DNA of 11,319 nt. Origin: Vulcanimicrobiaceae bacterium. GTDB lineage: Bacteria > Vulcanimicrobiota > Vulcanimicrobiia > Vulcanimicrobiales > Vulcanimicrobiaceae. A program made the translations under genes and the position numbers. The stretch spans positions 15,332-26,650 of the forward strand of contig JBHEMM010000016.1 of the NCBI GenBank assembly GCA_046262595.1, read 5' to 3'. The notes beneath the pieces were generated by a model. The model saw only the letters and a list, made by a program, of their open reading frames with translations. It searched no databases and was not told the origin of the DNA. How positions within the stretch are numbered: position 1 is the first letter of the stretch; the number at the start of each line of letters is the position of its first letter. This document shows, piece after piece, positions 2,100-11,319 of the stretch.

Positions 2100-2780
2100 A
2101 TGCTTTCCTCGTATGTTTTAGCCGCGGTGGTGCAGACGGGCAACGTGAAGCCGATCCGCTCTATGCTTTTCGCGTTCCATGCCTCTGGGCAAACCGAGGG
2201 TATTTCGCACTACGGCGGCATAGAAACCGGCCTGCCGGGCGTCTCGACGAATTATTCTTTGGGCGGTTACGACGGCACAATCGCCGTGGACGTTCTCGCG
2301 CTCGGGCCCGAAAAATCGCTGGTCCTGCGCATCACGCAGTCTGTTCCCCTCGCTCACAGTCTGGACGTTCCCGCCGGCGAGTGCGCGGTCTACCCCGACG
2401 GGCAGGTGAAATTCGATCCGGGGGCCGTGAAGTTCAGCACGCCGGAACTCACGCTCACGCGTTTTTTGGGCCGCACCTTTGTGAACGCCGATGCCATGGA
2501 TGACAAGAATCATTGGGCCGTCGATTTGGCCACCGGCCGCGTAAACGTGCGCTCCGATTTTACGGTGACGAGCAACAACAACGGCGTGGTGTCGATCGAT
2601 GAAAAACGCGTCTTAAAGGACGGGAACGACGAGTCGGACACCACAGGCCGGATCAGTTACGATATCAAACGCATGGTGCCGCTTTCGATTCACGAAGAAA
2701 GCGTCGAAATCTACGGATCGGGCAGCGTGCGTACGGGGGTGGATTACACCCTTAAGGCAGACTCGCTCGCTCCGCGCTGA
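2100..2780 (+). CDS. Hypothetical beta-rich protein, possibly exported
   Basis: 226-aa ORF filling the gap between the sigH promoter and rlmB. Composition is protein-like with alternating beta-strand patterns (GTIAVDVL, SDFTVT, GRISYD, VDYTL) and a very short hydrophobic N-terminus (MLSSYVLAAVV). No family recognised. Confidence 0.8.
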   Translation: MLSSYVLAAVVQTGNVKPIRSMLFAFHASGQTEGISHYGGIETGLPGVSTNYSLGGYDGTIAVDVLALGPEKSLVLRITQSVPLAHSLDVPAGECAVYPDGQVKFDPGAVKFSTPELTLTRFLGRTFVNADAMDDKNHWAVDLATGRVNVRSDFTVTSNNNGVVSIDEKRVLKDGNDESDTTGRISYDIKRMVPLSIHEESVEIYGSGSVRTGVDYTLKADSLAPR

Positions 2781-3520
2781 CGCACGGCCTCGTACAGCAG
2801 CACGGCAGCGGCCACCGACGCATTGAGCGACTCCGTGCGGCCCAGCAGCGGAATCCGCACCAGATAATCGCACTCGCGGGCGACCAGCGGGCTGAGCCCT
2901 TCTTCGCCCCCGATCACGATTGCGGCGTCGCGCGTGAAATCGGCTTGCGTGTAGGCGATGCTTTGCGGTGCGATGCCGGCGCCCGCGACCCAAACGTTCG
3001 CTTTCTTGAGCTTGCGGATCGTCTCGGCGACGTTCGCGACCCGCGCCACCGGCAAGTGCGCCGCTGCTCCGGCGGCGGCTTTACGCACCGTTGCGTTGAC
3101 ACCCGCCGCCCGCCGCTCGGGCATGACCGCCCCGTGCGCGCCGGCGCACTCGGCGGTACGGATGATCGCGCCGGCATTGTGCGGATCGGTGATATGGTCG
3201 AGCACGACGAGCAGCAGCGGTCCGCCTCGCGGACGCACCAGTAAATCTTCGAGCGAAGCGTAATCATACGGCGGCCCGAACGCGATGACGCCTTGATGCG
3301 CCTTGTACGGAAATTGGCTGAAGTACTTGCGGTCTTCCGTGCGCACGCGGATCTCGCGCTCGCGCGCGGCTTCCATGATTTTGCGCAACGCCGGATCGCG
3401 GCGGCGCTCCTGCGCGACATGAATGTGGCGCAGCTGCTCGCCCGCCGCGAGCGCCTCTTCCACCGCATGCACGCCGTAGACGACGTTGTCGAGATCTATT
3501 TTTGCGCGGCGAGGCTCCAT
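2744..3520 (-). CDS. rlmB: 23S rRNA (guanosine-2'-O)-methyltransferase RlmB (TrmH/SpoU family)
   Basis: VVYGVHAVEEAL, HQGVIA, LDHITDPHNAGAIIRTAEC, ESLNASVAAAVLLYE. Start reassigned to ATG 3520 (MEPRRAK), overlapping the cysS end by 25 nt. Position after cysS is canonical. Confidence 0.93.
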   Translation of the reverse strand: MEPRRAKIDLDNVVYGVHAVEEALAAGEQLRHIHVAQERRRDPALRKIMEAAREREIRVRTEDRKYFSQFPYKAHQGVIAFGPPYDYASLEDLLVRPRGGPLLLVVLDHITDPHNAGAIIRTAECAGAHGAVMPERRAAGVNATVRKAAAGAAAHLPVARVANVAETIRKLKKANVWVAGAGIAPQSIAYTQADFTRDAAIVIGGEEGLSPLVARECDYLVRIPLLGRTESLNASVAAAVLLYEAVRQRGASESALRV

Positions 3521-4908
3521 GCGGTTCCATCTTTCGAGTCCTTGAGCGCGATTCCGCACTCGAGCAAAATGTCGCGAAGACGGTCGGACTCCGCCCAGTT
3601 CTTGCTTTGGCGTGCCCGCGTGCGCAGCGCGATGACGTTTTCCAGTGCGGCTTGCGGCGATTCGCTGTCGAAAGCCGCCTGCCCGAGCGCCGCGCGCAAC
3701 CGCGAGGCGAAGTCGGCGGGAAGTTCGGCAGACGGCTGCGCGAGCCACGCTTCACCGGCCTGGATGCCGAGCAACTGCAGCGCATAGGCGAAAGCGCCGG
3801 CGCTCGTTCCTTTGTACGCCAGCAGTTCGGCGAGCGCGACGGCGGTATTGAGATCTTCATCCAACGCCGTTTCCATCCGAGCGATCAAACCGCCATCTTC
3901 CTGCCCCGGCGAGTGCATCAGTGCGCGGTAGGTCTTTTTCAGACGCTCCAGCGTTACGGCCGCCGCGGTGACCGACTCTTCGGTAAAGTTCATCACTTTG
4001 CGGTAGCCCGTTTGCAGAAACAGCAGGCGGATCGCCTGCGGATCGTGCCGGCCGAGCAGTTCCTCGAGCGGCTCGAAGTTGCCTAGCGACTTGCTCATCT
4101 TCTGGTTTTCGAACAGCAGCAGGCCGCCGTGCATCCAATATTTCGCCATCGGCGGGTGCTGCATGAGCGGCTCGCTTTGGGCGACTTCGTTTTCGTGATG
4201 CGGGAAGATCAGGTCGGCGCCGCCGCCGTGAATCTCGAAGCCTTCGCCCGGCGGGTCCAGCAGGGAACGCGACATCGCCGAGCACTCGATATGCCAACCC
4301 GGCCGGCCGTCGCCCCATGGCGAAGGCCACGTCGGCTCTCCCGGCTTTGCGAATTTCCACAGCGCAAAATCGAGGGGATCTTCTTTGTCCGCGTCCACTT
4401 CGATGCGCGCGCCCGCTTCGAGTTCCTCAATGTTGCGGTTCGCGAGCGCACCGTAACGTGGAAACGCCGAAACGCGGTAATAAACGCCTTCCTTGGATGC
4501 ATAGGCGTAACCCTGGGCGACCAGCGCGGCAATCATCTCGACGATCGGCCCGATAAATTGGGTCGCGTACGGTTCTTCATCGGGTTCCAAGACGCCCAGG
4601 CGCTTCATCGATGCCTTAAACCCCGCGTAGTAACCGGTGACGATGTCGTACCAATGTTCGCCCGTCTCACGGGCACGGTTGATGCTGCGATCGTCGATAT
4701 CCGTCACGTTCTGCACGTAGTGGACGCGAAAACCTTTGTGCGCCAAATAACGGCGCAGCACGTCGAAAAACAGAAACGAACGGGCGTGACCGAGATGCGC
4801 TTGCGCGGAGGGCGTGAGCCCGCACATGTAGATGCGCACGCGCCCGGGCTGCAGCGGCTCGAACGGCTCGACGCTGCGCGTGCGCGTGTTGTAAATCTTC
4901 AGGCTCAC
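3496..4908 (-). CDS. cysS: Cysteinyl-tRNA synthetase
   Basis: YMCG...HLGHAR (HIGH), QNVTDIDD, DFALWK, GRPGWHIECSAM, HGGGADLIFPHHENE (Zn ligands), KMSKSLGNF, DALR-type segment ALDEDLNTAVALAEL, and C-terminal R..AR..KNWAESDRLRD...GI.LKD. GTG start. Confidence 0.97.
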   Translation of the reverse strand: MSLKIYNTRTRSVEPFEPLQPGRVRIYMCGLTPSAQAHLGHARSFLFFDVLRRYLAHKGFRVHYVQNVTDIDDRSINRARETGEHWYDIVTGYYAGFKASMKRLGVLEPDEEPYATQFIGPIVEMIAALVAQGYAYASKEGVYYRVSAFPRYGALANRNIEELEAGARIEVDADKEDPLDFALWKFAKPGEPTWPSPWGDGRPGWHIECSAMSRSLLDPPGEGFEIHGGGADLIFPHHENEVAQSEPLMQHPPMAKYWMHGGLLLFENQKMSKSLGNFEPLEELLGRHDPQAIRLLFLQTGYRKVMNFTEESVTAAAVTLERLKKTYRALMHSPGQEDGGLIARMETALDEDLNTAVALAELLAYKGTSAGAFAYALQLLGIQAGEAWLAQPSAELPADFASRLRAALGQAAFDSESPQAALENVIALRTRARQSKNWAESDRLRDILLECGIALKDSKDGTAWSLAAQK

Positions 4909-4912
4909 GCCG

Positions 4913-5554
4913 TCATATCACCCACGACCACGCTTCTTCGCCCGTCTCGTCCTGTTCGATGTCAGCGATGCGCGCTTCGAGCTGCGACAAACGGCGCTCG
5001 AACGCGTTGCCCGTAACGCCTTCGTCCTGAACGCGTACGTGGACGCCGCTGTGCATCACGATGCGCGCGGGTACGCCGACAACGGTCGCATCCGGCGGAA
5101 CGTCCTTCACGACGACCGAACCGCCGCCCACCTTTGCGTTGTCGCCCACCGTAATCGCGCCGAGCACCGCGGCATTGACCCCGACCGTCACATTCTTTCC
5201 AAGCGTGGGATGGCGCTTTCCGTGCGAGAGGCTCGTGCCGCCGAGGGTGACGCCTTGATAGATCGTACAGCCGTCGCCGACTTCGGCCGTCTCGCCGATG
5301 ACGACGCCCATTCCGTGGTCGATGAACACGCCGCTGCCGATCTTCGCCCCGGGATGAATCTCGATCCCGGTTAAAAACCGGTTCATATTCGAAAGCCAGC
5401 GCGGAAGCAGCGGCAAGCCGGACGCATGCAGCGCGTGAATGATGCGGTGCAGGACGAGCGCGTGAAACCCGGGGTACGAAAGAATGACATCGAGCGGCCC
5501 CCGCGCTGCGGGGTCGCGTTCGAGCGCGGCGCGAAGATCCTCAACGATTGCCAT
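4913..5554 (-). CDS. cysE: Serine O-acetyltransferase
   Basis: ERDPAAR...[46 protein letters not shown]...[15 protein letters not shown] hexapeptide-repeat acetyltransferase. GGGAG RBS upstream; adjacent to cysS. Confidence 0.97.
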
Positions 5555-6092
5555 CGGGGCGTTCTCCCCGTATGGGCTCGAACGGTTCGCCGCCCGGGCC
5601 GTACTTAATCGGATCTAATCCGCGCCCGTGCAGCAAACGCGAGTTCACTGCGCCCAAACGGATCAAGATGCGATCGTGCCCGAGCAGCGGAAAAAGCAAC
5701 TCCAGCGGCGGGCCGTCCGTTTTTCCGCTCAGCGCCATGCGAACGGCGTAACGCGCGTCGCCCGTGCTAACACCGAACTCCTGCGCCATCACCGCAAGAT
5801 CGTTCTGGAGCGGCAGCCCGCGCAGTTCGGCTTGACTGTCCACATATTGACCGACGGTGTCCAAGAAAAACAGTACGTCGCGCGAGCGCAAGCGCTCCAG
5901 TTCGAGCGCCGGAATGATGCACGATTCTTCTCGCAGTTCCGCAACGCGCGCGCGCGCATCGGCCACAGTGGAGCATTGCGCACCGTACGCCTGCACAAAC
6001 AGATCGATCCAACGCAGCGCCGCATCGGGAGCGGGGGTTTCGAGCACTCCCCATTGCTGCATCGCCGCAGCCAGTTCGTCGCGCGCGATCAT
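5541..6092 (-). CDS. Stand-alone protein resembling the C-terminal anticodon-binding domains of glutamyl-tRNA synthetase (no catalytic domain)
   Basis: [30 protein letters not shown] matches the GluRS C-terminal pattern R-x-A-h-[ST]-G-x3-G-P-x-L...L-[LI]-G-x5-6-R-L. No HIGH or KMSKS. Occupies the gltX slot between ispF and cysE, with ATGA overlap to ispF (6089-6092) and 14-nt overlap to cysE. Confidence 0.8.
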
Positions 6093-6562
6093 CGTTCGTC
6101 AATCAGCGCGACGGCGTGAACCGCGATGCCGCTGCCGTCTCCGGTGTAGCCCATGCCTTCGCTCGTCTTCGCTTTCACGCTCACCTGCGAGACGGCAAGC
6201 TCCAACCGCTGCGCGATATTCGCACGCATCTGCTGCAGATACGGCGCCAACTTCGGGCGGTCGACGATGATGCTTGCGTCGACGTTCGTGATGTAGTAGC
6301 CCGCGCGCCGCACGTGCGCGGCGCACTGCGAGAGCAGCGTGAGCGAATCGGCGTCTTTCCAACGCGCATCAGCATCCGGAAAACGTTCGCCAAGATCGCC
6401 CAACGCCGCAGCGCCGAGCAGTGCGTCGCACAGTGCATGCGCGAGCGCATCGGCGTCGGAATGCCCGAGCAGGCCGGTCTCGTTCGGCACGTTCACGCCG
6501 CCCAAAATGAAGGTGCGGCCGGTCACCAAACGGTGTGCGTCGAAGCCATGCCCCACACGCAT
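6089..6562 (-). CDS. ispF: 2-C-methyl-D-erythritol 2,4-cyclodiphosphate synthase
   Basis: MRVGHGFDAH, GHSDADALAHALCDALLGAAALGDLG, NVDASI, PKLAPY, VSVKAKTSEGMG. TAATG overlap with the ispD stop. Confidence 0.97.
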   Translation of the reverse strand: MRVGHGFDAHRLVTGRTFILGGVNVPNETGLLGHSDADALAHALCDALLGAAALGDLGERFPDADARWKDADSLTLLSQCAAHVRRAGYYITNVDASIIVDRPKLAPYLQQMRANIAQRLELAVSQVSVKAKTSEGMGYTGDGSGIAVHAVALIDER

Positions 6563-7230
6563 TACGACCGCGCCTGCAAAAGCATCTCGGCGCGCGTCAG
6601 ATCGGCCGGCAGCGTGACTTTGAAATTTTCCGGCGATCCGGCCACCATGCGAACCGGAATGCCCACACGTTCGAGCAGCATCGCGTCGTCGGTTGCGTCA
6701 ATTCCGTCGTGAATGCCTGCTTCGTGCGCGTCCAACAGTTCGGTTAACATCGCAAACTGCGGCGTTTGCGCGGACCAAAGCACGCCGCGCTCGAGCGTTT
6801 GCATCACGAGGCCGGCGCCGTCCACCATTTTCACCGTATCGACCACCGGAACGCCCAAAACCGCAGCGGCACGCGGGCCGGCGGCCGCCATACCCTTGCG
6901 CACGTCTTCGGGCTCGATCAAGGGGCGTGCGCCGTCGTGCACGAGCACCGCGTCGACGCGGCCGCGCAGCGCCCTGAGTCCTGCGTAGGAACTTGCTTGG
7001 CGCGTCGCCCCGCCCACGACGACTGCACTGTTCACCGCAACGCGCGCCATTGGTTCGATCCATTCGCGTTCCGTTACGACGACGATCTCCTTGATTTCGC
7101 GCATCGATTCAAAAACGCTGACGGACCAAGCCGCCAGCGGTTTCCCTGCAACGGGCAGCAGTTGCTTGGGACGCCCGAAGCGCGTTCCGCGGCCGGCGGC
7201 AACGATCACCGCGCCCCACGCGAGTATCAC
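6562..7230 (-). CDS. ispD: 2-C-methyl-D-erythritol 4-phosphate cytidylyltransferase
   Basis: AAGRGTRFG.PKQ, GGATRQAS, VLVHDGARP, PVVDTVK, QTPQ, NFKVT. GTGA overlap with the upstream PIN/TRAM gene. Confidence 0.96.
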   Translation of the reverse strand: MILAWGAVIVAAGRGTRFGRPKQLLPVAGKPLAAWSVSVFESMREIKEIVVVTEREWIEPMARVAVNSAVVVGGATRQASSYAGLRALRGRVDAVLVHDGARPLIEPEDVRKGMAAAGPRAAAVLGVPVVDTVKMVDGAGLVMQTLERGVLWSAQTPQFAMLTELLDAHEAGIHDGIDATDDAMLLERVGIPVRMVAGSPENFKVTLPADLTRAEMLLQARS

Positions 7231-8330
7231 AGTTTACTGCTTCTGGGACGCGCGAAGATCATGCGTCCGGCAACGGTTTGCAGCACGCTCGTGACGACGA
7301 CATCGGCGCTCTCGCCCAAAAGGCGGCGGCCCTGTTCGACCACCACCATCGTGCCGTCGTCCAGATAGGCGACGCCTTGATGCGGTTCTTTGCCCTCGCG
7401 AACAATTTGAACGTGCATCTCCTCGCCCGGGAGAACGACGGGCTTCACCGCGCCGGCAAGCTCGTTGATGTTGAGCACTTGCACGCCTTCAACACCGGCG
7501 ACGCGGTTAAGATTGTAGTCGTTTGTGAGCAGTCTGCCCGAAAGTTCTTTCGCAACGCGAACAAGTTTCGCGTCCGCTTCGCGAACGTCGGCGTAATCGC
7601 GTTCACTGATCTCGAGCACACCGAGTTCCTGCAGGCGATTGAGCACCTCCAGGCCGCGGCGGCCGCGCGTACGCTTGAGCGGATCGGTCGAATCTGCAAC
7701 GGCTTGCAGCTCGCGCAGAATGAAGCGCGGCAAAATGAACGGGCCTTCCAAAAATCCGGACTCCAAGATTTCGACGATCCGGCCGTCCACGATCACCGAC
7801 GTGTCGATAATTTTCGGCATGCCGTGCGCGCCCGCCGCGCTGCCGGCGCCGAGCGGCAAGAAGTGCACGCGCGCGCCGACCCGAGCGCCCAGATAAGCGG
7901 CGAAGATGCTTATCAAAATGTAGAAGAGGATCGCGAGATAACTTCCCGCAGGCCCCATCGAGGCAACGAACTCAAAAAGGATGCTGCGGATCAAAAAAGC
8001 GACGAGCAAGCCTAAGATGAGTCCCACCGCACCGCCAGCGAGTTCCACCGGCGCAAGCCGTTCGATCGCGCGTTCCACGGCGTTGAGTTCACCCTCAAAG
8101 ATCGTTTGGGCGAGCGGCGCGAGCAGCACGCCGGCGATGGCGCCTACGGCGGGCGTAACGATCGTGAAAGCGAGCTGCCACGCCTCGCTGGTGAAGTGCA
8201 GCGAAAAAAGGTGCAGATACGCCTCGCGCCCGAGCAAGAAACCGGTGATGCCGAAAATTACAGCAAACAAAAACCGCAGCAGTGCCGCGGCGATGCCGGG
8301 CCCTACGCGAGCGTTACGAAGGCCGCGCAT
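7227..8330 (-). CDS. yacL: Membrane-anchored PIN/TRAM domain protein (YacL-like)
   Basis: About four N-terminal hydrophobic segments, PIN motifs KIIDTSVIVDGRI, ELQAVADS.D..KRTRGRRGL, LLTNDYNLN, and TRAM segment GKEPHQGVAYLDDGTMVVVE...VTSVLQTVAGRMIFA. Canonical neighbour of ispD. Exact start uncertain. Confidence 0.92.
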   Translation of the reverse strand: MRGLRNARVGPGIAAALLRFLFAVIFGITGFLLGREAYLHLFSLHFTSEAWQLAFTIVTPAVGAIAGVLLAPLAQTIFEGELNAVERAIERLAPVELAGGAVGLILGLLVAFLIRSILFEFVASMGPAGSYLAILFYILISIFAAYLGARVGARVHFLPLGAGSAAGAHGMPKIIDTSVIVDGRIVEILESGFLEGPFILPRFILRELQAVADSTDPLKRTRGRRGLEVLNRLQELGVLEISERDYADVREADAKLVRVAKELSGRLLTNDYNLNRVAGVEGVQVLNINELAGAVKPVVLPGEEMHVQIVREGKEPHQGVAYLDDGTMVVVEQGRRLLGESADVVVTSVLQTVAGRMIFARPRSSKL

Positions 8331-9430
8331 ACGTCGTTTGCGAGAAAACGGCCGCGGCGCGTGAGGCGCGCGTGCGTTTCATCGACTTCCAGCAGGCCGT
8401 CTTGCGTGAAACGCGCCACCGCGTTGGCATAGAAAGAAGAAAAGTCCAAACCGTAGCGATCTTTGAAGTGCTGCAGAGATACCCCTTGCGCGGTGCGCAG
8501 CGCAAGCATGATTGCCTCGCCGGCACGTTGTGCCCCTTTCAACTCCTCCGATTCACCCGGTATCGCCTCATTTTCTAATGCCGCTTTTACGTACTCGTCC
8601 AGCGACTTGGTGTGAATACTTCGGATGCCGCGCTGGTACGAGGCGGCCCCCACGCCCAGCCCGACGTAATCGCCGTTTGCCCAGTAGTTCGCATTGTGCG
8701 CGCTGCGGTGACCGGGCCGCGCGAAATTGCTGATCTCGTAGTGTTCGAACCCCGCTTCTTCGAGCGTGGCGATCGTGCGCTCGTAGAGTTCCGCTTCCGC
8801 GGCGTCGTCCATGAAGGCTTGCGGTTCGCGATCGCGCCAGCGTTCGTAAGGCGTCTGCGCCTCGACCGTCAATCCGTATGCCGAGATGTGATCCGCGCCG
8901 AGCCGGATCGCCGCGTCGAGCGAGTGCTGCCAGCTCTCGGGCGTTTGGCCCGGAACGGCGAACATCAGATCGACGCTTACGCTGCGCATGCCGGCCGCGC
9001 GCGCGGCATCGACTCCCGCTTGCACGTCGGCCGCGGTATGGCGCCGTCCAAGCGTTGCAATCTCCGCGGCAACGAACGACTGCACGCCGATCGAAAGCCG
9101 GTTGACGCCGCTGCTGCGGTACGTTTGCAGATCCGCCGCACGCACGAGTTCGGGATTGACCTCGATCGTCGTCTCGCGATCTTGCGGCCCCGGATACAGC
9201 GCGTCGAACAAAGCGAGCAGACCGGCGATCTCCTCAGCATCGTACGTATTGGGCGTCCCGCCTCCGAAAAAGACCGTTTCGAAAACGCCGGCGCACGCCC
9301 GGCTGCGCGCTTCAGACTCGAGCGCCGCAAGATAGCGTGCGGCGGCGCTGCGCTTATGCGGCCATTTCGCAAAATCGCAGTACGGACAAATGTAGGGGCA
9401 AAACGGTAGGTGAACGTACAGTGCAGTCAT
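8303..9430 (-). CDS. hemW: Radical SAM heme chaperone HemW (HemN-like)
   Basis: LYVHLPFCPYICPYCDF (CxxxCxxC, no HemN N-terminal extension), FFGGGTP, TIEVNP, RLSIGVQSF, YEISNFA, HNANYW (HNxxYW typical of HemW), GLGVGAAS. Confidence 0.92.
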   Translation of the reverse strand: MTALYVHLPFCPYICPYCDFAKWPHKRSAAARYLAALESEARSRACAGVFETVFFGGGTPNTYDAEEIAGLLALFDALYPGPQDRETTIEVNPELVRAADLQTYRSSGVNRLSIGVQSFVAAEIATLGRRHTAADVQAGVDAARAAGMRSVSVDLMFAVPGQTPESWQHSLDAAIRLGADHISAYGLTVEAQTPYERWRDREPQAFMDDAAEAELYERTIATLEEAGFEHYEISNFARPGHRSAHNANYWANGDYVGLGVGAASYQRGIRSIHTKSLDEYVKAALENEAIPGESEELKGAQRAGEAIMLALRTAQGVSLQHFKDRYGLDFSSFYANAVARFTQDGLLEVDETHARLTRRGRFLANDVCAAFVTLA

Positions 9431-9445: not shown

Positions 9446-10297
9446 TCAATCTTGCGCGCAGAAGATACCAACTGCGCCCGGACCGCCATGGGTTGCGATG
9501 ACAGGCCCCGCCTCGATGAGGGCGATGGCTTTGGGCGTTTGGCCGGCAAAGCGTTCACGCAGGCGCTGCCGCATATCGGCGGCCAGCTGGGGCGCATTCG
9601 TATGCATCACCAAAAAGCGCGCGTTGGGTATATCGTTCGCGGCGGCAAGCGTGAGATCGATCATCGTCTCCCGCGCTCGCGACATCGTGCGCACCTGTGC
9701 CTCGGCAACCACTTCTCCCTCGCGCAAAGCGATCACGGGCACGATCTTCATCAAGGTGCCGAGAACGGCTTTCGCTTTACCGATGCGTCCGGTGCGGACG
9801 ACGTGCGAGAGGTCCGGAATGCAAGCGTACAGGTGCTGCACCGAACGTTGCCGCGCAAGCTCGTTCAGAATAGCGTCGATCCCGGCAGCGGATTTCGCCA
9901 TTTCATGTGCGGTAAGCACCTGCATCTGCAATCCGCCGGCGACCGTTTGCGAATCCACCACCTCGATGTGCGTGCCGGGAAACTGCTGCGCGGCCGCGCG
10001 GGCCGCATTGATCGTTCCCGAAAGTTTGCCGCTGATCGTCACGCAGACGATGTCGCTGCCGGCGTGCACGTGCGGTCGAAACGCGTCCTCGAACATCGAG
10101 GCCGTGGGCTGCGAGGTATTCGGCAGTTCCTTTGCCGCCGCAAGCTTTTGGTAAAAATCCGAACGTGAAAGGTCGAGATAATCGCGATAGCTGCATTCGC
10201 CGAAACGCACGAACAACGGGACCACGTCGATGCCGAGTTGCAAAGCGCGCTGCGGCTCGATGTCCGACGTGCTGTCGGTGACGACGGCGACCGCCAA
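9446..10297 (-). CDS. DegV family fatty-acid-binding protein (FakB-like)
   Basis: VVTDSTSD, PNTSQP, TISGKLSGT, VVDSQTV, TGRIG, VIATHGGPGAVG. TTG start directly abutting the plsX stop. Confidence 0.93.
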   Translation of the reverse strand: MAVAVVTDSTSDIEPQRALQLGIDVVPLFVRFGECSYRDYLDLSRSDFYQKLAAAKELPNTSQPTASMFEDAFRPHVHAGSDIVCVTISGKLSGTINAARAAAQQFPGTHIEVVDSQTVAGGLQMQVLTAHEMAKSAAGIDAILNELARQRSVQHLYACIPDLSHVVRTGRIGKAKAVLGTLMKIVPVIALREGEVVAEAQVRTMSRARETMIDLTLAAANDIPNARFLVMHTNAPQLAADMRQRLRERFAGQTPKAIALIEAGPVIATHGGPGAVGIFCAQD

Positions 10298-11203
10298 CTA
10301 CGCCTCTTTGGCCAAATGCGGCTTGACGAGCTCGGTGATCTTGCCGACGACGTCGCGATCGGCTTCGATGGCCGCTTGCCGCACCGCGTGTTTGACCGCA
10401 TTGCGCGTCGCGCGGCCGTGCGCGACGATGCAGTTTCCGGAAAGGCCGAGCAGCGGCGCTCCGCCGTACGTCTCGTAGTCGAAACGTGTGCGCAGTTTGC
10501 GCAGTGCCGGAAGCATGAGGACGGCGCCGGCTTTGGCGAGCAGATTACCGCCGAGCACCGCTTCCTTGATCACTTTTTGCAAGTCGGAAACCAAACCTTC
10601 GCCCAGTTTAAGCACGACGTTGCCGACGAATCCGTCGACGACCACCACATCGGCGGCATTGTGGAACAGGTCTTTACCCTCGACGTTGCCGGTGAAGTTG
10701 ATGGGCGCTTTGCGCAGCAGTGCGGCGGCTTCGAGCACTTGCGCATTGCCCTTGCTCGGCTCTTCGCCGACGGACAAGATCGCGACGCGCGGATTCGCGA
10801 TGCCGAGCACCGACTTGGAATACGCCGAGCCCATAATGCCGAATTGTTCGAGCCATTCGGGACGGCAATCGACGTTCGCGCCGGAATCGAGCAGCACCAT
10901 CGGGCCGTTCATCGCGGGCCACACGGTCGCGATCGCGGGACGCGCGATGCCGGGGATCGTGCGCAGCCGGATAAGTGCGATAGCCAAGAAAGCACCGCTG
11001 TTGCCTGCCGAAACCACGGCGTCGGCGGTGCCTTCCTTGAGCATGTTGACCGCCACGCCGAGCGACGTCTTCTCGGAGATGCGCAGCGCTTGCGCCGCGT
11101 GCATATCCATCGGCACGGACTCGGGCGCATGAACGACGGTAATCTTCTCGCTTCCCGGGCCGGTAAGCAGCGCGCGCACCTGCGGTTCGTCGCCGACGAG
11201 GGC
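10298..11203 (-). CDS. plsX: Phosphate acyltransferase PlsX, N-terminal ~30-40 residues missing (replaced by foreign sequence)
   Basis: LVGDE, ADAVVSAGNSGA, GIARPAIA, LLDSGANVD, LSVGEEPSKGN, NFTGNVEG, DVVVVDGFVGNVVLK, YGGAPLLGL, HGR. The conserved N-terminal IAVDAMGGD motif is absent although the reading frame stays open to the window end. Confidence 0.9.
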   Translation of the reverse strand, partial: ALVGDEPQVRALLTGPGSEKITVVHAPESVPMDMHAAQALRISEKTSLGVAVNMLKEGTADAVVSAGNSGAFLAIALIRLRTIPGIARPAIATVWPAMNGPMVLLDSGANVDCRPEWLEQFGIMGSAYSKSVLGIANPRVAILSVGEEPSKGNAQVLEAAALLRKAPINFTGNVEGKDLFHNAADVVVVDGFVGNVVLKLGEGLVSDLQKVIKEAVLGGNLLAKAGAVLMLPALRKLRTRFDYETYGGAPLLGLSGNCIVAHGRATRNAVKHAVRQAAIEADRDVVGKITELVKPHLAKEA

Positions 11204-11319
11204 GTGGACCTGGTGCACTTCGACAAGGGCCAGCGCAAAGACGACATCGCCCAGTCCTACCTGGCCACCCACGACGGCTCCGAGGGGACCTTGTTCGTGG
11301 GCCGGGCCCAGGAGAAGAC
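11183..11319 (+). other. Internal fragment of an unrelated coding sequence, resembling an uncharacterised, probably mobile-element-encoded protein family
   Basis: + frame from 11183 reads RFVADEGVDLVHFDKGQRKDDIAQSYLATHDGSEGTLFVGRAQEK(T) with no stop to the edge. Third positions are almost all G/C, with GCC/ACC/TCC/CTG codons. The F.KGQRKDD...YL.....EG.LF.GRAQEK pattern is recalled from multicopy IS-like hypothetical genes (not verified by search). Confidence 0.6.

Follow-up and report, generated by a model that had tools for sequence, protein, structure and literature searches.

Why should the gltX slot of a bacterial genome hold only the tRNA-recognition half of a glutamyl-tRNA synthetase (GluRS)? 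The question is raised by an 11,319-nucleotide stretch from a Vulcanimicrobiaceae bacterium (the window, meaning that whole stretch), in which a frame of 183 codons plus stop, ORF183, lies on the minus strand at 5541-6092 in the row yacL-ispD-ispF-[gltX slot]-cysE-cysS. An earlier note on this DNA had placed it between ispF and cysE, overlapping both, and the list of open reading frames and a reading of the sequence bear this out: the ATG start is overlapped by the ispF stop TGA (ATGA at 6089-6092), and the ATG of cysE, at 5554, stands 14 nt ahead of the ORF183 stop at 5541 (overlap 5541-5554). Our findings show that ORF183 is the C-terminal anticodon-binding module, with a short conserved tail, of the GluRS that ancestrally occupied the slot (type A). 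They also show that type A was formerly one of two working canonical GluRS, the other being type B, that in most members of the family Baltobacteraceae (Eremiobacterota) another enzyme, type C, is the only full-length GluRS, and that the anticodon-binding half of type A stayed under purifying selection. ORF183 is the surviving tRNA-recognition half, left after a foreign-type GluRS displaced the native enzyme. Because its product has no catalytic domain it cannot aminoacylate, and we infer that it is a non-catalytic binding module that would recognise the anticodon arm of tRNA(Glu/Gln), a protein partner, or both.

The identity of the module is evident from profile and structure searches, both of which the earlier note had proposed. 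ORF183 matches the Pfam family Anticodon_2 (PF19269; E 6.7e-7, 30.2 bits, gathering cut-off 23.6), its residues 8-147 covering profile positions 3-138 of 141. The model of the complete bacterial enzyme, TIGR00464 (gltX_bact), aligns through its last 118 positions only (347-464 of 470), scoring 22.8 bits where the cut-off is 289.95. A Pfam search finds no PF00749 catalytic domain in ORF183 or anywhere in the window, and its 183 residues contain no HIGH-like or KMSKS-like string, so that the absence of a catalytic half, as first noticed from the letters, is confirmed. An AlphaFold2 model built on a 51-sequence alignment (mean predicted local distance difference test score, pLDDT, 93; predicted template modelling score 0.87) has eight helices (residues 4-13, 23-39, 43-54, 62-67, 71-86, 95-105, 110-122 and 130-155) and the fold of the bacterial GluRS anticodon-binding domain (ABD). 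All 26 rows listed by Foldseek, to rank 41, are bacterial GluRS, with probability 1.00 and template modelling (TM) scores of 0.55-0.68; the best, 2cfo_B, has TM 0.68 by query length, although at an E-value of only 1.3e-3. When 48,161 representative chains were searched with VIA-align, the top six were again bacterial GluRS (Z 10.7-15.4, 141-157 residues aligned; 2cfo_B best, Z 15.4 over 157), followed by class I lysyl-tRNA synthetase at Z 9.1 and the remainder at Z of 5 or less. We regard the predicted ABD fold as solid for residues 1-159; the tail, modelled at pLDDT 74-81 with isolated beta bridges, was barely probed by these structure searches. Strong profile matches to the PDB (E 1e-22) are partly a matter of construction, because the alignment behind them (A1) included ABDs of full-length GluRS, and a profile restricted to ABD-only members (A2) detects solved GluRS chains only weakly by sequence (8jpv_A, E 2.3e-4; 2o5r_A, E 4.8e-3).

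The helical core, residues 1-147 (5652-6092, minus strand), delimited by model helices and profile alignment, corresponds to GluRS domains 4 and 5, and a profile including it aligns with residues 314-467 of the Thermus thermophilus enzyme. Within it, residues 117-146 (5655-5744, minus strand) form the GluRS domain-5 motif, V-R-M-A-L-S-G...G-P-P-L...L-L-G-H-D-R...R-L, as the earlier note had quoted it. R118 aligns with T. thermophilus R435 and G127-P128-P129-L130 with T444-P445-G446-L447, and R118, G127, L130, G138 and R145 are invariant in the 31 ABD-only family members of A2. The strongest conservation in the family falls in two further parts, residues 53-93 and the tail at 153-176. The former, a lineage-specific charged block (L-R-x-E...P-A-L-E-L-E-R-L-R...F-x-x-D...Q-Y-x-D...E-L; 5814-5936, minus strand), holds 19 of the 43 columns that are invariant in A2 and has few residues in common with the T. 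thermophilus stretch aligned to it. The latter (L-L-H-G-R-G-L-x-P-I-x-Y/F-G-P-x-G-x-P-F-E-P-I-x-G; 5565-5636, minus strand) lies past the canonical domain end and is near-invariant in A2. As a separate observation, the tail resembles a unit, G-V-F-H-L-R-G-L-x-P-F-R-F-G-P-R-G-S-x-W-x-P-V-x-G-D-W, that is repeated five times at the C-terminus of two other proteins, P0182 and P0183 (one a subtilase of 993 residues, the other of 839 residues; profile E ~2e-4), which may reflect a shared beta-hairpin unit or chance.

How did such a module come to stand alone? Slot loci were read by tblastn and alignment in relatives of the window's genome (G000; 2.42 Mb in 122 contigs, 89.7% complete, the window on contig C16) from its own family (f1), a sister family (f2) and another family (f3). 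The row yacL-ispD-ispF-X-cysE-cysS is conserved, answering the earlier note's question of whether relatives share the ispF-X-cysE order, and X occurs in a graded series of states. It is intact in G037, G038 and G039 (f3), in G025, G026 and G027 (f2; in G029 the gene is cut by the contig end) and in G015, G074, G122 and G083 (f1), as a full-length type A gltX with a normal HIGH region, a C-Y-C...C-R-x-L segment and K-L-S-K-R-H. It is degenerate in G108, G139 and G159 (genus g33), G133 (g85) and G054 (g45), where a full-length gene has lost a 41-residue segment, the HIGH region is eroded (missing in G133) and KMSKS is replaced, for example by H-K-L-S-R-Q, E-K-L-E-H-D or V-K-G-S-G-A; the conserved C-terminal module is intact in these genes, ABD and tail alike. 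The ABD-only state of the window was read at locus level in 34 published genomes, eleven of them single-contig assemblies (G007, G009, G012, G018, G093, G160, G061, G077, G125, G141 and G163). In the empty state cysE follows ispF after 30-417 nt (G089, G130 and G152 of g80; G058 and G114 of g49). The C-terminal part of the full-length slot genes is 58-66% identical to ORF183, and the proposal of the earlier note that gltX lost its catalytic half while the tRNA-recognition half was kept has thereby been substantiated.

The charged block and the tail were there before catalysis was lost: G015, G074, G083 and G122 carry both in their intact type A genes, and G027 and G029 carry both in their slot genes, of which that of G029 is cut by a contig end; the slot genes of G025, G026, G016 and f3 have neither. 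Their presence in working enzymes assigns them to a role that the C-terminal part of the old enzyme already had while it was still catalytic. Individual loci depart from the series. In G016 (g14) the 41-residue deletion coexists with HIGH and KMSKS, and the ABD is diverged and without tail. The frame of G155, one of the 34 ABD-only genomes, extends to 385 residues, of which the N-terminal 200 match nothing. In G042 the ABD gene precedes cysS by 7 nt, and neither ispF nor cysE is found within 2.5 kb; in genus g85 the ABD gene and cysE are separated by a gene for an MscS-type channel (loci L063 of G094 and L064 of G155). Open-frame length was rejected as a proxy for a full-length gene, G009 having a 773-residue open frame without a catalytic domain.

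The series extends across the family. Of 151 family genomes, 131 have an ORF183 match (E<=1e-8), and of 78 genera 66 do; the match is either an ABD-only gene or the C-terminal end of a longer slot gene. Database searches yield 1044 homologues of 100-321 residues at E<=0.001, with source names given as Candidatus Baltobacteraceae, Eremiobacteraeota or Vulcanimicrobiota, and a representative search with A2 returns 69 matches at E<=0.001 among 1.84 billion proteins. Unpublished genomes enter the tallies of PF00749 and ORF183 matches, and no conclusion rests on them; three of these, G023 (two copies) and G126 and G150 (a full-length slot gene, judged from coordinates), are consistent with the picture. 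Other short Anticodon_2 proteins (P0171, P0175 and P0177) come from contigs of 651-3577 bases or are marked partial.

Which enzyme charges tRNA where the slot has lost its catalytic half? The genome of the window holds a single PF00749 match, on contig C43 (L001:1015-2574, minus strand), and this GluRS carries its own Anticodon_2 domain (E 8.5e-25). Because this match is the only one, no GlnRS was found, and Gln-tRNA is presumably made by the indirect route; genes for GatB and glutamyl-tRNA reductase (GluTR) are present. A scan with aragorn recovered tRNA-Gln(UUG) and no tRNA-Glu from this genome, a gap put down to the incomplete assembly; the same scan reported two tRNA-SeC genes and, for one tRNA, an anticodon of four bases (gcgg). 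In most ABD-only genomes PF00749 occurs once, and the single-contig G007, G009, G012 and G018 have exactly one catalytic domain each. Two are found in each of G015, G074, G083 and G122 and in each f3 genome; the f2 genomes have at least three, namely types A and B and a catalytic-only gene of ~320-335 residues. Catalytic-only genes resembling GluQ were seen only in f2, where the slot gltX is intact, and in none of the ABD-only genomes counted for PF00749; the f2 genomes G025-G029 each contain a PF00749-only match in an open frame of ~160-335 residues at 86-172 bits (for example G027:C55:26856-27665) that looks Glu-Q-RS-type.

The sole GluRS of ABD-only genomes, type C, is of a different kind from the slot enzyme. 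The parent of ORF183 was a canonical GluRS: for the intact type A of G015, a full-length orthologue of ORF183, the best PDB match is T. maritima GluRS1 (2o5r). Type C most resembles the Pseudomonas aeruginosa enzyme (5tgt_A; E 1e-179 and 602 bits for G009, whose protein spans the full length of P. aeruginosa GluRS, and E 4e-146 for the C43 copy of G000). In PMC12088422, P. aeruginosa GluRS is described as a homodimer in which each ABD reads the tRNA on the other protomer, with a lysine-rich C-terminal helix. A lysine-rich C-terminal extension like the L-G-G-h-S-K-K-type motif quoted in PMC12088422 is found in type C of G009, G008 and G020; the G000 copy ends ahead of it, has a short deletion in a segment near-invariant among relatives, and belongs to a long branch (1.64) in this genus. 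All five degenerate-A genomes examined (G108, G139, G159, G133 and G054) carry type C, 61-66% identical to that of G009. No type C was found in G015, G074, G083, G122 or G016, where the best matches are at 37-39% (type B) and 40-48% (slot gene), and genomes with type C yielded no type B. Among the genomes checked, ABD-only and degenerate slot forms were found only together with type C. Homologues of type C at 72-81% identity bear source names that include Acidoferrales and Binatia, which would fit a gene moving between soil phyla.

Does the orphaned half still matter to the cell? Ratios of nonsynonymous to synonymous substitution rates (dN/dS), calculated by Nei-Gojobori in 14 genome pairs, are 0.109-0.189 for ORF183 and, in the same pairs, 0.10-0.22 for ispF, 0.08-0.43 for cysE and 0.20-0.40 for ispD; all are rough because dS is ~1-2, near saturation, and we consider the comparison with the neighbours a fair one in spite of this. 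The calculation, which the earlier note had suggested, places ORF183 (0.11-0.19) in the range of neighbouring housekeeping genes. In the degenerate full-length genes the two parts have come apart, with dN/dS of 0.36-0.54 in the catalytic part and 0.19-0.41 in the ABD part; in intact type A genes both parts are equal (0.06-0.18). ORF183 is better conserved than the only GluRS of its genus: it is 70-75% identical to its orthologues in G009 and G008, and the GluRS of G000 is 52-56% identical to theirs. A pseudogene or neutral remnant was rejected on the open frame, the dN/dS values of the 14 pairs and the 43 invariant columns, and an assembly artefact on the matches in 131 of 151 genomes and the eleven single-contig ABD-only loci. 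The earlier note had itself raised the prospect of relatives with an intact gltX at this place and an ORF drifting neutrally after a recent deletion or an assembly collapse; the intact genes do exist in some relatives, but ORF183 is not drifting neutrally and is no product of an assembly collapse.

The order of events can be read in part from a tree of the C-terminal module (49 rows, IQ-TREE in careful mode), with branch supports to be taken in the light of a bootstrap that is not fully settled. All 37 rows from genomes with an ABD-only or eroded slot gene fall in one starred clade (95/93*), which excludes both the f2 genes and the intact slot genes of G015, G074/G122 and G083. Within this clade G042 has an ABD-only gene that is nested in a group with the three degenerate full-length genes found in the same genus (98/85*), and the tree requires at least four changes between full-length and ABD-only forms. 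A single truncation event, suggested by a 40-row tree, was rejected once genomes had been added. Deletion of the catalytic half more than once is therefore shown, and the contrasts within g33 and g85 are independent of the tree, because genus labels come from the genome collection. We envision a likely order in which type C arrived, type B was lost and the catalytic half of type A decayed, after which the decayed half would have been deleted several times and the whole gene lost in a few genera.

How might a GluRS without a catalytic half be useful? In our reading, ORF183 would carry on a non-catalytic job that the C-terminal part of the old enzyme once did. Its domain-5 motif (R118, T/S122-G123, G127-P-P-L130) would most likely still hold the anticodon arm of tRNA(Glu) or tRNA(Gln), while the charged face of residues 53-93 and the tail of 153-176 would contact a protein partner, and the product would act as a tRNA-targeting adaptor. 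This scenario, in which tRNA arm and partner are both predicted, is the one that we tentatively favour, at somewhat less than an even chance; the putative exapted tRNA-binding adaptor or regulator that the earlier note had offered fits the observations as well.

Several observations weigh against this adaptor scenario. The first concerns the surface meant to hold RNA. The ABD-only proteins have a median isoelectric point of 4.95 and a median net charge of -8.5 (32 rows), which speaks against strong RNA binding; the median is -8 in degenerate full-length genes and -4.5 in intact slot ABDs (10 rows), and the ABDs of other GluRS paralogues lie between -5 and +3 (12 ABDs). Among the T. thermophilus residues that we take to be anticodon contacts, R435 and R417, the equivalent of the former, R118, is near-invariant, and that of the latter is A100 in ORF183 and variable in the family. 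The equivalent of R358, a C36-binding residue according to PMC12088422, is Q39 and likewise variable. The second concerns persistence, for some lineages manage without the protein. No ORF183 match was found in 20 of the 151 family genomes, the ABD gene is gone in all five genomes read from g80 and g49 (93-98% complete), and a stop codon lies inside a matched piece in seven of the 131 genomes with a match. In the single-contig G018 (L028:4698-5223) a frameshift at residue 150 puts the tail in another frame, and the copy of G013 (L036) ends ahead of the tail. Third, the block and the tail predate type C and were hence not built to bind it, and the dN/dS values are rough for the reason given above. 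On balance, the acidity and the losses in g80 and g49 count against an essential RNA-binding role, and the invariant domain-5 motif counts for it. As a further observation on single copies, that of G001 (L033) is interrupted around residue 30 by a stop or frame break, and cysE is not adjacent there.

Alternatively, the fold may have ceased to bind tRNA and may serve purely as a regulator or scaffold that presents its charged face and tail to a protein, for example GluTR, GatCAB, CysRS or CysE. We consider such a protein-only role unlikely, though it is the strongest competitor of the adaptor. It would account for the fall in net charge along the series (-4.5, -8, -8.5), for the variability of the R358 and R417 equivalents, and for a conservation that is strongest in residues 53-93 and the tail, presumably not the main anticodon contacts, and genes for two of the candidate partners, GatB and GluTR, are in the genome. 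The invariance of the domain-5 motif, R118 included, does not sit easily with it, although that invariance may have structural reasons, and no partner has been identified. The neighbourhood of ORF183 is of no help here, because it was inherited from the ancestral gltX operon and says nothing about a partner.

Might ORF183 instead serve the enzyme that displaced its parent? As a putative trans-acting subunit it would recognise tRNA(Gln) or tRNA(Glu) by the anticodon and pass it on to an enzyme without this specificity, be it the putative dimer resembling P. aeruginosa GluRS, GatCAB or GluTR, a role that we judge improbable. A narrower version, in which it is an anticodon-binding subunit of type C or of the GatCAB pathway that confers a second specificity (such as tRNA-Gln) or holds Glu-tRNA(Gln) for amidation, appears slightly more doubtful still. 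What speaks for a trans-acting subunit is that ABD-only and degenerate forms occur only in type C genomes, and that one GluRS must serve both tRNAs, since no GlnRS was found and GatB is present. There is also precedent: the free distal domain of Escherichia coli GluRS reportedly stimulates the C-truncated enzyme in trans (Dubois, Blais, Huot and Lapointe, Biochemistry 2009), and the P. aeruginosa enzyme uses its ABD across subunits, as described in PMC12088422. Against this, type C has an ABD of its own, its G000 copy is without the lysine-rich C-terminal extension, and G015, G074, G083, G122 and G027, which have no type C, possess the charged face and tail in their intact type A. Moreover, g80 and g49 seem to manage with one GluRS gene, presumably type C, and no ABD gene. 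If ORF183 were nevertheless such a subunit, tRNA identity would be read by a separate polypeptide, a modular two-piece recognition that would mirror Glu-Q-RS.

It is further conceivable that ORF183 is a slowly decaying remnant whose frame is kept in cis, for translational coupling or for the operon architecture of cysE and cysS. The overlaps with both neighbours, the complete loss with which the series ends in g80 and g49, and the occasional broken copies would agree with this, but a role in cis leaves the amino-acid conservation (dN/dS 0.11-0.19, 43 invariant residues) unexplained, the frame is kept across 66 of 78 genera, and the gene persists where its context has changed, beside cysS in G042 and with an MscS-like gene before cysE in g85; we hold this to be quite improbable. 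Least credible by far is the split GluRS of the earlier note, in which ORF183 would act with a catalytic-only paralogue encoded elsewhere: despite the clean truncation at a domain boundary and the precedent of Dubois et al. 2009, the genome search that the note had suggested found one PF00749 gene, with its own Anticodon_2 domain, in an assembly 89.7% complete, and one each in four single-contig relatives.

Returning to the module itself, how does it compare with what is known? Domains 4-5 of bacterial GluRS (Thermosynechococcus 2cfo, Thermus 1j09 and 1n78) have the same fold (Z 15.4 over 157 residues), belong to the same Pfam family and share the motif R-x-A-L-T-G...G-P-x-L...L-G...R. Unlike them, ORF183 stands alone without a catalytic domain, has its own 30-residue tail and the block of residues 53-93, is more acidic and varies at the R358 equivalent. 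Like ORF183, the engineered distal domain of E. coli GluRS is the C-terminal portion of the enzyme on a polypeptide of its own; in contrast to that laboratory split, the ORF183 fragment is natural, and no catalytic-only partner was found. Stand-alone domains derived from synthetases, such as editing domains, HisZ, Glu-Q-RS and DALRD3, have been a source of new tRNA biology. Glu-Q-RS (YadB), which PMC12088422 presents as a GluRS paralogue with one half kept and another role, is the mirror image of ORF183, being a catalytic half without an ABD where ORF183 is an ABD without a catalytic half. Human DALRD3, a non-catalytic protein with an ArgRS-type DALR domain, associates with METTL2 in a complex and is required for 3-methylcytidine in arginine tRNAs (PMC7237682). 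It offers a model for an adaptor, in that a synthetase-type anticodon-binding domain works without catalysis, but it belongs to the DALR rather than the Anticodon_2 family, is eukaryotic and has a known partner. The likeness to the dimeric P. aeruginosa GluRS (5tgt, 8vc5) is that of the C43 gene and not of ORF183.

The ORF183 protein family is recorded but uncharacterised, databases listing its members as 'hypothetical' or 'Anticodon binding domain-containing protein'. Literature searches of full text, supplements aside, turned up neither a paper on bacterial GluRS anticodon-binding proteins that stand alone nor one naming both Eremiobacterota and glutamyl-tRNA synthetase, and as far as our searches show, neither the decay series nor its link to an enzyme like that of P. 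aeruginosa is in print. Within one bacterial family and at one locus, every stage can be seen, from a working enzyme through a dead catalytic half to a binding half alone and finally to nothing. The switch coincides with a foreign-type GluRS, and selection can evidently act separately on either half of a class I synthetase. A protein of 183 residues provides a tractable handle on those roles of the GluRS C-terminal module that go beyond helping aminoacylation, and supplies a missing counterpart among the stand-alone domains derived from synthetases.

The remaining genes of the window form a row on the minus strand that runs, from the distal end, through plsX (10298-11272), degV (9446-10297), a hemN-like radical SAM gene (8303-9430), a yacL-like PIN-TRAM gene (7227-8330), ispD (6562-7230) and ispF (6089-6562; PF02542, E 1.7e-64) to ORF183, and continues beyond it with cysE (4913-5554; Hexapep and SATase_N) and cysS (3496-4908; PF01406, E 1.4e-111). 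A sigH-like sigma factor gene lies on the minus strand at 1255-1902, and a frame of 226 residues on the plus strand (2100-2780), situated between it and a methylase gene, is without a Pfam match. That methylase, of rlmB type, is encoded inside a minus-strand frame at 2744-3748, the first ~85 N-terminal residues of which fall outside the SpoU domains, and its real start probably lies further in.

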